Positions 6,001 to 9,000 of a stretch of 14,879 nucleotides of DNA are shown piece by piece. Where the stretch lies: the IMG/VR virus record IMGVR_UViG_2667527789_000019. One strand, 5' to 3'. The stretch's first letter is position 1. The number at the start of each line of letters is the position of its first letter. The position numbers were made by a program. Source of the stretch: a virus (Duplodnaviria; Heunggongvirae; Uroviricota; Caudoviricetes).

Positions 6001-9000
6001 GGATGAGCAGGTTTGCCCCTGTCAATTATGACCCCGCCAGTCTGCCGATTCCTGAACTGTACGGCTACAGGGAAAGCGACGGGCGTTATGACGAACCTGT
6101 TTTGTTCTACGTGCTGCCGGATCCGTTCGGCTCACATGTGGCGAATGGATTTAACAAGGATGCCGCGGCAAAAGTTCTTCATGAAGCCGGAATGCTGAAA
6201 AGACCATCCAGCGGTCGTGGGTGGCAAATCAGGACACCACGGCTAAAACACCTGAAAGGGGCGCGCCTGAGAGTGTACGGCCTTTTGCTGGCGCAGGACC
6301 ACGACACGGAAAGCGATTAATCTCGCGTATAGGCGATGAAAAAATGTTGTCCCAGTTGTCCCACTACGTATTAATTGATTGATTTTACTAAAAATACAAT
6401 AAAAAAGTGGGACAACATTACAGCATTTTGGGACGACATCGGGGTATTTTGGGACGACATAGCGACATTTTGGGACGACACAACGAGCGTTAATTACCCT
6501 GGCTGGTGACTGGGACAACATAAAACCCCTCATGTTGTCCCAAAATCGGCTAATGTTGTCCCAGTTTTCGGAGTGTATTTTTAATTAAATCAATGGATTA
6601 TGTGTAAGTGGGACAACTGGGACAACTGGGACGACGTGTTTTTGTATATATATAAAAAAATAAATTGAGAGGATGAATTCATGAGTGAAATTACTGTTAA
6701 AAATATCTCACCTGCGGTAGCTGGCTGGTGGGCGAAGTTCAGAGACGACGACGGCACGGAATGGTACAGCCCGATTGCTGCATGGGCGCTTTGTGAGGTT
6801 GATTATTTCGGTGCGGGGAACACCCGCCGCGAAATCTTACCCGTGCTGACCAGTGAGCTTGGTATGGGTTCGCACCCATCCGATGAAGGCTATTGCGCGT
6901 GTCTGTATCTGCCTGATGAAAAGTTCACGCTCTCAGGTGAGCAGGGGTCTTTTGCCTGGTATCCGGTGAACAGCAACAGTAATAACGGCAATTCGGGGGC
7001 TGAATCATGACGGCGAAGCACACAAAAAACCATAATTCCGTGGTGAAGTTCGTATCTGCCCGTGGCAGGCCAACGCTTTTAGTGCCAGGAAAACATCTGC
7101 ATTACTGCGATGAAAATCATATCCCGATCGTGATTGTCTGGAAGCGAACGGTATACGCCGATGTGACATGGCTGTATGACTCGCTGGCGTTGATGCACCG
7201 TGACCTGTTTGAGCGTGAAGAGTTCCGGCTGAATATTGAGGAACGGGCAGAAAAAATCTATGAGCAATATGCAGCAAACAGCAAAAGAGCCGCACGGGCA
7301 ATCACTCACCATTTCATGACGCTGTATGACCTGAAAGCAGAAGATGCAGAAAAAGCGGCATGTGATTTATTCGATATGACAATGGGTATTATCCAGGAGT
7401 ACCGGAACAGGGAGCGCAGACCATGACAGCACAGATTGCAGCTTACGGGCGGCTGGTGGACGACCCGCAGGAAAAACAGACCAGCAAGGGCACACCGATG
7501 ACGCTGGCGCGTATGGCGGTATCTTTGCCATGCAGTCAGGCACAGGACGGACAGGCGACGTTATGGCTATCAGTCCTGGCATTTGGTAAGCAGGCCGACG
7601 CGCTGGCGAGACATGAAAAAGGCGACCTTATCAGCGTGGCGGGTAACATGCAGATCAGTCAGTGGACCGGACAGAACGGAGAAATACGGCAGGGCTGGCA
7701 GGTTATCGCTGACAGCGTAATCAGTGCCCGTTCGGCGCGTCCTGGCGGGAAGCGGGGGCAGCAGGGGAAGGCGACCGAAGCACTGGACAGAGCAAAACGA
7801 CAGACCGGACAGCAGGGAAATCAGCCACCAGCGGGAGGTGATGACCCTTACGGTGATGATATTCCGTTCTGAGCGACAGGAGCACAACATGAACCAGCAG
7901 ACCACACAACAGGACCAGACAGTACGTAAACCATCACGGCGCATACCGTGGCAGCACATGACAAAGCGGCAGCGAAAAAAACCACAGACGGATTAACCGC
8001 CTGGCTGAATACTGGCCCGAGATTTTCAACGTGGAGAATATGAAGCCCCTGAAAACTGGCGTGATCCGTGATGTGCTTAAGGACGCTAAGGAACGGGAAT
8101 TGCCGATTGGTCACGGCGTATTGCGCGGCGCGTTAATATCGTATATCCACACAACCAGATACCTGAATGCTGTTATCGCTGGTGGTGCTCGGTATGACCT
8201 GAACGGGCAGCCTTGCGGCGAAGTCACGGAAGAAGATAAATCAGTCGCCAGTGAACTACTGAAACGGAGACTGGCGCAAATTAAGCAGCAGAACAGCCAG
8301 CAGCAAACAACCGGAGACGATGGTGATGATAGCTGACAGCGTGGCACAGAAACTTGAGGAGCGCGGTTTATGGCGACGTGCGGCGACCCGATGGACTGAG
8401 GTTCTTCTTCATGCAGAAACGGACAGGGAACGCGAGGAAGCTGCCAGACGTCGGGCGATATGTATCATTAAATCCCGTCGTATGCCTGAGCAGTTCGTCA
8501 CCTTTGGCGATGTGAAAAAGGCCGCTGACAGAACGCTGGCAGAGATGGGGATTAATCCACAGGATGAATGGCGAAATTACAGCTTCAGTGATGCAGGCGA
8601 CGATTTAGCGCTACCGTGATACGCATCTCATTGCCGCATTTGCTCAATTATCGCGATTCGCTATAATCACCACCGAAAAGCCGTTGATGGTGTTCTCCTC
8701 GGGCAACTGGAGCCCGACTGAATGAAGCCATTCAACGGTTTTTCGGCACTCATTCCGGTGTATCTGATCCCACACATCGGGATGAGTGAACGACGAAAAC
8801 ATCACGGTGATTTCGTCATGCCGCGATAAGAATGTTCCCCTTTGGGCAACTGGAGCCCTCTGTGCAGAAGGTTATCGCGGTCAGGTTGTGATAAAAACGC
8901 GCCTCTTTGAGCAATTGAAGCTCACTGTAAAGCGGCTTATCACAGCAGGCTGTAGCGGGTGCTCATCTCTGGGCAACTGAAGCCCTCTGTACAGAGGCCC

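Follow-up and report, generated by a model that had tools for sequence, protein, structure and literature searches.

The 14,879-bp stretch of DNA analysed here (the window; IMG/VR virus record IMGVR_UViG_2667527789_000019, Caudoviricetes) carries a cluster of short repeats directly behind rep, a gene for a predicted initiator-helicase of 712 aa (4182-6320, plus strand). The question raised by this locus is whether these repeats are the replication origin at which that protein acts. From the comparisons described below, we consider that 6346-6668 is the replication origin of an integrated Gram-negative satellite of the phage-inducible chromosomal island (PICI) type, and that 4182-6320 encodes the cognate MCM-like initiator (helicase superfamily 6, SF6; DUF927), with a probability of roughly 0.85. 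The layout itself is already known, and the origin in the window is a clean fresh example of it, not a new kind of system.

Array of 9-bp repeats downstream of rep

The 9-mer TGGGACRAC was found as an exact match at 12 sites in the window, each of them within 6346-6635, against an average of 0.23 and at most 3 copies in 200 dinucleotide-preserving shuffles, none of which reached 12. When one mismatch was allowed, only the same 12 sites were obtained from the whole window, where about 6 are expected by chance. Eight copies are on the plus strand (starts at 6408, 6429, 6450, 6471, 6511, 6609, 6618 and 6627) and four on the minus strand (6346, 6355, 6534 and 6555). The array occupies the gap between the open reading frame (ORF) 4182-6320 and the ORF 6681-7010, and the distance from the rep stop codon to the first iteron is 26 bp, an offset shared by about 70 related loci.

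From left to right, the array begins with two abutting minus-strand iterons (6346-6363), detected by motif count and read on the plus strand as two copies of GTTGTCCCA. They are followed by the AT-rich spacer A (6364-6407, 44 bp), with a GC fraction of about 0.2 in the GC profile (0.22-0.25 over 6360-6419). Four plus-strand iterons, starting exactly 21 bp apart at 6408, 6429, 6450 and 6471, make up the phased block (6408-6479), and three TGGGACGAC copies of the array have the longer common context ATTTTGGGACGACA. The central segment (6480-6510) holds CCTGGCTGGTGAC, which is a one-mismatch Chi sequence at 6501-6508. The right half starts with a lone plus-strand iteron (6511-6519), continues with two inverted minus-strand iterons (6534-6563), again 21 bp apart, and then with the AT-rich spacer B (6564-6608, 45 bp, GC about 0.3, and 0.30 over 6560-6619), the mirror of spacer A. 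Three abutting plus-strand iterons in 9-bp steps form the right block (6609-6635), and the AT-rich motif GTGTTTTTGTATATATATAAAAAAATAAATTGA (6636-6668) follows the last of them. The GC fraction of 6640-6679 is 0.15, and the ribosome binding site (RBS) and the ATG of the next gene (6681) come after this AT-rich tract. Thus, three AT-rich tracts are present in the array region, two of them internal.

A reading of this DNA made earlier, from the sequence-only point of view, had described twelve TGGGACRAC copies in both orientations, three of them at 21-bp phasing and three in tandem. The total and the two orientations were reproduced, as was the tandem triplet at 6609/6618/6627, to which the abutting pair at 6346/6355 can be added; the phasing is also real, and the number of copies that obey it is four.

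The two halves repeat one theme, in which iterons of opposite direction face each other across an AT-rich spacer. On the left, two minus-strand iterons (6346/6355) are separated by 6364-6407 from the four plus-strand copies of 6408-6479, and on the right this is mirrored by the minus-strand pair 6534/6555, the spacer 6564-6608 and the three plus-strand copies of 6609-6635. The array of about 290 bp is an imperfect palindrome with its centre near 6486, in which the complementarity is 81% for the arms of 53 nt and 79% for those of 47 nt, and a blastn comparison of the origin with its own inverse matched 288 nt at 69.8%. No DnaA box was found at up to one mismatch within 6346-6668, in line with a DnaA-independent initiation, which would be expected of a self-loading helicase. 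The features of the origins of PICIs and of Staphylococcus aureus pathogenicity islands (SaPIs), namely the position 3' of rep, the number of iterons (12), an AT-rich region between opposed iterons and the initiator family, are all present in the window.

Conservation of the array at related loci

For comparison, the 450 bp after the stop codon were examined at 80 Enterobacterales loci that encode a Rep homologue. At about 72 of the 80, a repeat array lies directly after the homologue, in the same place and with the same geometry. The repeat unit of these loci is a strongly repeated 8-9-mer, of which the geometry is kept and the sequence varies.

The common plan starts with two to three abutting left-pointing iterons, which lie some 25 to 45 bp behind the stop codon. 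The first AT-rich spacer, as a rule about 45-55 bp in length and 42-62 bp in 36 related origins, has a mean GC fraction of 0.19, against 0.44 in the central block, and is AT-rich across the relatives without sequence conservation. A phased block of three to four copies spaced 11/21/21 bp comes next. The longer form of the origin adds further copies, a second spacer, and finally two to three abutting iterons in the opposite orientation. At up to one mismatch, 12 iterons were counted in 25 and 6 iterons in 20 of the 70 loci scored, and degenerate copies account for the in-between counts. The left half of the window origin (6346-6479) is the equivalent of the six-iteron form, and the twelve-iteron form adds a rough mirror image to this unit.

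The elements of the right half differ in how widely they are shared. The iteron position at 6511 and the inverted pair 6534/6555 are kept in the architecture class '<<>>>>><<>>>', the right tandem block is present with two to three copies in all of the 12-iteron relatives, and spacer B is AT-rich in the architecture class of the window and GC-rich (about 0.6) in another class. The motif TTTTGyTTATATA..AAAAA stands after the last iteron in 12-iteron origins across genera, with any iteron type and any downstream gene, and was not found in the 6-iteron origins. The only AT-rich element common to all forms is spacer A.

These comparisons bear on the remaining proposals of the sequence-only reading. 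It had taken the AT-rich tract 3' of the repeats for an unwinding element; the AT-richness is confirmed (GC 0.15), the AT tract that is universal is the internal one (6364-6407), and the 3' motif belongs to 12-iteron origins only. It had named the absence of the repeats from syntenic homologues as a finding that would speak against an origin, and the opposite was observed. Its central proposal, a SaPI/PICI-type layout placed right after the initiator gene, agrees with the homology of Rep, the synteny with the island EcCICFT073, the shared plan and the covariation of the repeats with the C-terminal domain of Rep, as described below.

Only the six-iteron 'half' origin is present at 20 of the 70 loci, with the next gene directly 3' of it (L002, L014, L017, L019, L026, L028, L030, L031, L034, L035 and others; also L083 and L084). 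In three of these (L002, L017 and L084), a perfect Chi sequence, GCTGGTGG, is located just after the phased iterons, at the place that corresponds to the one-mismatch Chi of the window origin.

The loci without an array are mostly broken genes, contig ends and islands with remnants only. At L009, L024, L054, L072, L080 and L081, the homologue is apparently intact or nearly so and is followed by no array or by 2-3 remnant copies; these are candidates for islands that lost their origin. Several circular records of 10-16 kb deposited as plasmids also encode a DUF927 homologue (NZ_CP069874.1, which is L086; NZ_CP148430.1, NZ_CP142848.1, NZ_CP056722.1 and others). The circular record that was inspected contains a complete capsid-forming PICI of K. 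pneumoniae (int, alpA, rep, capsid, portal and terminase), the origin of which follows the same plan with 12 iterons of the TGAACCAAC type, and such a record is probably an excised satellite that was assembled as a plasmid.

Rep protein and the specificity of the iterons

Three parts can be distinguished in the 712-aa product: residues ~1-130 form a Toprim-like N-terminal module, residues ~150-600 a DUF927 MCM-like (SF6) helicase and residues ~606-712 a C-terminal domain that varies. The protein matches Pfam DUF927 with an E value of 1.3e-41, matches a PHROG family annotated as DNA primase, and weakly matches the NCBIfam model of the SCCmec helicase Cch1. Rep is homologous to SaPIbov1 Rep (8tch) and SCCmec Cch (5dgk), both by sequence and by fold. 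The ORF is intact and has kept its Walker-type GKT motif along with further residues that are invariant in the family. The terminal domains gave less: the N-terminal 146 aa and the C-terminal 117 aa found no match in Pfam, a profile of the C-terminal domain found no match among the PDB sequences even at an E value of 10, and this domain alone (residues 596-712, 16-row alignment) was modelled at a predicted local distance difference test (pLDDT) score of 43, too low for the model to be used. By size and predicted secondary structure, the matches are most plausibly assigned to the C-terminal (~617-705) and N-terminal (~1-130) domains of Rep.

The last ~100 residues are exchanged as a module among otherwise similar Rep homologues, and the iterons change together with them. 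Over 65 loci, the similarity of the iterons and the identity of the C-termini gave a Spearman coefficient of 0.70. The partial correlation between iterons and C-terminus, controlling for the helicase core, was 0.66 (Mantel permutation p = 0.001), while that between iterons and core, controlling for the C-terminus, was -0.19. Individual pairs illustrate this. L003 and L011 have unrelated N-termini (11% identical), with cores at 84% and C-termini at 89%, and both have the iteron TGAACCAAC. Conversely, cores of 88% identity are joined to C-termini of 43% identity in L003 and L066, with TGAACCAAC as the iteron of the former and TAACCCAC as that of the latter. Similarly, the near-identical cores of E. 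coli P0013 and P0028 are joined to different C-termini, and the iterons are GGGACAAG and TAACCCGCA, respectively. As judged from these alignments, the iteron sequence tracks the last ~100 residues of Rep, not the core or the N-terminus.

This covariation fits the published SaPI model, in which a winged-helix domain reads the iterons, and the C-terminal domain, encoded by 5997-6317 on the plus strand, is the putative iteron reader of Rep. We also considered the N-terminal domain for this role, which the window protein has in common with the Pri-Rep of the validated origin of EcCICFT073, and rejected it because loci with unrelated N-termini have the same iterons.

Over the first ~150 residues, Rep has 42-48% identity with the N-terminal ends of PICI Reps in which the helicase part is unrelated. 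These relatives are the D5 (superfamily 3, SF3) Reps of EcCICFT073 and EcCIRM13514 and the RepA-type protein of EcCI042.

Proposed mechanism of initiation

A working model can be drawn from this organisation. After induction, a rightward AlpA-dependent operon would yield Rep, hexamers of which would dock on the 9-bp iterons via their winged-helix-like C-terminal domains. The origin would be composed of two roughly mirrored six-iteron halves, each made up of a tandem block and a phased block on either side of an AT-rich spacer, and would receive one hexamer per half, so that a double hexamer would be assembled. The AT-rich spacers, above all 6364-6407, would then melt, the two helicases would separate, and the single-strand DNA-binding protein (SSB) of the island would coat the single strands. 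Host enzymes would prime and synthesise the DNA, possibly aided by the Toprim-like N-terminal module of Rep. In this scheme we infer the binding to the iterons, the hexamer stoichiometry, the site of melting and the continued firing of this copy. Spacer A (6364-6407) is most likely the melting site and is the first candidate, because it is the only AT-rich element in all origin forms. The motif at 6636-6668 may serve as a further unwinding element, as a site for priming or for a host factor, or as a promoter. A simple promoter scan detected none on the plus strand there and thus lends the promoter reading no support.

Three further ideas, which we offer together as a speculation that may well fail, concern the family as a whole. 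Firstly, the forms with 6 and 12 iterons might exist because the six C-terminal domains of a Rep hexamer read one iteron apiece; a 'half' origin would then be loaded with one hexamer, and the palindromic form with a double hexamer. Secondly, the C-terminal coding region and the adjacent iterons might be one recombining cassette, with at least 10 mutually exclusive origin specificities that would act as incompatibility or anti-cross-talk classes. Thirdly, the origin plan and the Toprim-like module might be common to the SF3, SF4-like RepA and SF6 helicases in E. coli PICIs; if so, the origin architecture would be set by something other than the helicase motor.

Comparison with known replication systems

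In Gram-negative PICIs, the origin lies directly 3' of pri-rep, with two sets of iterons around an AT-rich region, and the rep-ori segment of EcCICFT073 sustained a plasmid, while the rep and ori mutants failed (Fillol-Salom et al. 2018, PMC6092414). EcCICFT073 resembles the island in the window in its type and in the order of int, alpA, an Icd-like gene, the DUF4222 gene, rep, ori, SSB and PerC, and the two islands share stretches at 73-91% DNA identity in a mosaic manner. Its origin, too, is directly 3' of rep and has about 11-12 copies of 9-bp iterons in both orientations. It begins with two tandem 9-mers, continues through an AT-rich spacer into a stretch of mixed copies and closes with another two tandem 9-mers in the opposite orientation, which is the same plan. 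Over their first ~150 residues, the two Rep proteins have 42% identity. However, the helicase of EcCICFT073 is of the D5_N/DUF5906/Pox_D5 (SF3) type, whereas that of the window is DUF927 (SF6), and its iteron is GGTAGACAG-like instead of TGGGACRAC. In addition, unlike EcCICFT073, the island in the window has no recognisable capsid-related genes. A DUF927-type Rep was not found in the five published E. coli PICIs examined, all of which have proteins of the D5 or RepA type; the four Pri-Rep alleles of the 2018 study may or may not include the DUF927 type. An earlier study has placed DUF927 proteins in a 'primase' family of enterobacterial satellites (PMC10111431).

For SaPIs, PMC9371898 and PMC7581432, which summarise the work of Ubeda et al. 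(2007, 2012), describe origins that follow rep directly and hold 6-12 iterons around an AT-rich centre, which has at least 2 iterons on each side in opposite directions. In this description the iterons are read by the C-terminal winged-helix domain of Rep, probably as two hexamers. SaPIbov1 is similar to the window in the homologous DUF927/SF6 helicase, which in the window is a predicted self-loading one, in an origin just behind rep, in the range of 6-12 iterons, in the AT-rich region between opposed iterons and, as a putative trait of the window, in the specificity of the C-terminal domain. The differences are that SaPI iterons are 5-6 bp long and those of the window are 9 bp, and that SaPIs have one central AT region, whereas the window has two AT-rich spacers within an imperfect palindrome. 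Moreover, SaPIbov1 has a separate primase gene, while in the window the Toprim-like module is fused to the N-terminus of Rep; the two Rep proteins are ~14% identical, and the host of the window is Gram-negative. The putative origin of the SCCmec Cch2 system differs from that of the window in having only three described iterons, a D5-type helicase and no phage-satellite context.

The alpha protein of P4, another enterobacterial phage satellite, is a primase-helicase with a C-terminal DNA-binding domain that recognises short repeated octamers, and P4 replication needs two separated sites, ori and crr. The combination of a primase-helicase with short repeats in an enterobacterial phage satellite is shared with the window. 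A P4-type ori/crr system was nevertheless rejected, since the window has a single iteron cluster even at one mismatch, a DUF927/SF6 helicase instead of D5/SF3, and another gene organisation. The classical iteron plasmids (pSC101, R6K, RK2, P1 and F) have direct iterons of 17-22 bp and DnaA boxes, and their initiators are winged-helix dimers or monomers without helicase activity, which need DnaA and DnaB/DnaC loading. They are similar in that repeated initiator sites with a phasing of about two helical turns lie beside an AT-rich tract. An origin of their kind (RepA/pi/TrfA type) was also rejected, because no DnaA box is present, the 9-bp iterons run in both directions and the initiator is a predicted helicase.

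The origin in the window differs from the described examples in a DUF927 (SF6) Rep in an enterobacterial PICI, in iterons of 9 bp and in a palindromic layout with two spacers. The accepted view of how PICI/SaPI-type elements replicate stays unchanged. The comparison provides a rule for annotating the origins of DUF927-type satellites, that is, 6 or 12 copies of a 9-mer from about 25 bp after the stop codon. The table of pairs of C-terminal domains and iterons can guide specificity swaps on MCM-like self-loading helicases, and compact rep-ori cassettes of distinct specificity are useful for vector design.

The island and its genes

The window matches an E. coli chromosomal island that adjoins a tRNA-Gly gene between actS/xdh and a GH15 gene. 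Positions 1-12495 align at >99% to the reference island of strain 2015C-3121, with the exception of one replaced segment, and by this identity the island is judged to be ~12.5 kb long. The allele is rare: it is present in 5 of the 5,426 complete E. coli genomes, with 98.8-99.8% identity over the origin. The insertion site, tRNA-Gly by actS/xdh, is not among the attachment sites given in PMC6092414, and the island is not among the Gram-negative PICIs in Table S1 of that 2018 defining study. No direct repeat of at least 14 nt of the tRNA-Gly 3' end was found as attL/attR in the reference island, and no tRNA gene was found in the window.

On the plus strand, the genes follow one another as int (1-1254), alpA (1798-2001), a Rha/Icd-like gene, small ORFs, a DUF4222 gene (3890-4150; Pfam DUF4222, E 1.7e-23) 31 bp upstream of rep, rep, the repeats, two genes of unknown function, the SSB gene (7423-7872), ProQ/FinO, PerC and the antiterminator Q. 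Gram-negative PICIs are about 8-15 kb long and have no phage lysis or tail genes; the island is within this size range, has int, alpA and rep/ori in one rightward unit, and contains no lysis or tail genes. The SSB gene (Pfam SSB, E 7.8e-15) has 81.6% DNA identity to ssb of EcCICFT073. Such a gene stands after rep-ori in most of the related islands, and the island SSB is likely a replication accessory. A DUF4222 gene precedes rep in four of the five published E. coli PICIs examined (EcCICFT073, EcCIIHE3034, EcCI11368.1 and EcCI042), whatever the helicase class, and none is annotated before rep in EcCIRM13514.

Two places in the window depart from the reference. A single ORF of 461 aa at 2066-3451 combines a Rha-like N-terminus with an Icd-like C-terminus, and at that place the replaced segment of the 2015C-3121 island encodes two Icd-like ORFs that are separate from each other. 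The window ceases to resemble the reference island at 12495; beyond this point, the window contains a 532-aa tyrosine recombinase (12630-14228) and another ORF, and the reference contains the GH15 gene. This suggests that 12496-14879 is a second integrated element in tandem.

Weighing the proposed origin against other explanations

Several points weigh against the assignment of 6346-6668 as a replication origin. Its support is a comparison of sequences, and the validated origin of an E. coli PICI comes from an island with an unrelated D5/SF3 helicase. The AAA+ core in the model of full-length Rep is of low confidence, and the covariation between the C-terminal domain and the iterons could come partly from the physical linkage of adjacent, co-exchanged segments. 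More than one of the AT-rich tracts may be the one that melts. Finally, no recognisable capsid or terminase genes and no lambda-type cos site were found in the island, and the island may be decayed or non-mobilisable, with an origin that no longer fires.

This last point leads to the most serious reservation, more serious than a role of the repeats in regulation, packaging or partition, namely that the array is an origin by descent that is no longer functional, a relic in a decaying island. We regard this as improbable, although several observations are in its favour: functions for capsid remodelling, terminase or cos were not recognised in the island, the allele is rare among the complete genomes, the near-identical island of 2015C-3121 has a frameshifted DUF4222 gene, and the repeats are lost or rep is broken at L009, L010, L024, L039, L054, L072, L080 and L081. 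Decay would be expected to erode the repeats first, however, and all 12 iterons match the consensus exactly. The rep ORF, its GKT motif and the family-invariant residues have been preserved, and no part of the architecture is missing, with both spacers and the 3' motif in place.

It is more improbable still that the repeats are mainly a transcriptional operator array for the genes from 6681 on, bound by Rep or another island protein, with replication taking place elsewhere or not at all. Plasmid iterons often serve as operators too, and the RBS and the start codon of the gene at 6681 come directly after the right block of tandem iterons and the conserved motif TTTTGTATATATA..AAAAA, with no terminator predicted between rep and this gene. 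On the other hand, no sigma-70-like promoter was detected on the plus strand in 6200-6800, where one weak match was obtained on the minus strand, and the genes that follow this array are unrelated from one island to another. The geometry is also that of the characterised SaPI/PICI origins, with opposed iterons around AT-rich spacers in sets of 6 or 12, and the repeats covary with the C-terminal domain of a helicase. A regulatory side role would be compatible with the array being an origin.

A packaging site (a pac/cos-type site of a terminase small subunit) or a centromere-like partition site can practically be set aside: bidirectional repeat arrays are typical of terminase small-subunit sites and of parC/parS-type centromeres, but the island has no terminase or ParA/ParB genes, the array is tied to the helicase gene, both in position and in sequence, in islands with or without a terminase of their own, the published PICI cos sites lie elsewhere and resemble the cos of the helper phage, and lambda cosN gave only a chance-level match with two mismatches at 8378.

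Chi sites and other repeats

Among the octamers of the island, Chi, GCTGGTGG, ranks first: 14 copies were counted as compared with 0.4 expected from shuffles, and the one-mismatch variants of Chi have 0-2 copies each. The sites are at 265, 2435, 2564, 5130, 6724, 7452, 8178 and 11982 on the plus strand and at 5723, 7825, 9080, 11055, 11129 and 12323 on the minus strand. All 14 are within 265-12330, and none was found in 12496-14879. In the reference strain, 16 of the 17 Chi sites in 24 kb fall inside the island. The density is the same in the five published E. coli PICIs examined, about 1 per kb, which is 4-5 times that of the E. coli chromosome, and in the capsid-forming PICI of K. pneumoniae 12 of the 13 Chi sites are on one strand. 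The published values are one Chi per 4.6 kb for the E. coli chromosome and one per 1.86 kb for a 'Chi-rich' lambdoid phage (PMC12315714), and no paper connecting Chi abundance with PICIs was found in the literature. Near the origin, CTGGCTGGTG lies at its centre (6499-6508) and includes the one-mismatch Chi GCTGGTGA, and a second CTGGCTGGTG, with a perfect Chi, is in the next gene at 6721-6731.

A second array is located at 9440-9625, where TGCGCAAAA(A) units recur with a 12-bp period, three of them at 9446-9478 and more at 9572-9625. These units flank three CGATCA units, each with a GATC (about 9479-9512), and a doubtful ORF of 79 aa overlaps the array. Twelve-mers similar to TTACCGGAAAAA were found at eight places at up to two mismatches (1.4 expected; none of 200 shuffles reached 8), namely at 5050, 9560, 10512, 10591, 11075, 11528, 12147 and 12342. 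Seven of the eight are on the plus strand, mostly in the right-hand third of the island, and they are possibly regulator sites. Downstream of perC, GGGCAACTGGAGCCC, a short GC-rich palindromic unit, occurs three times at about 8701, 8844 and 8971 (converted from 14402, 14545 and 14672 of L001), with distances of 127-143 bp.

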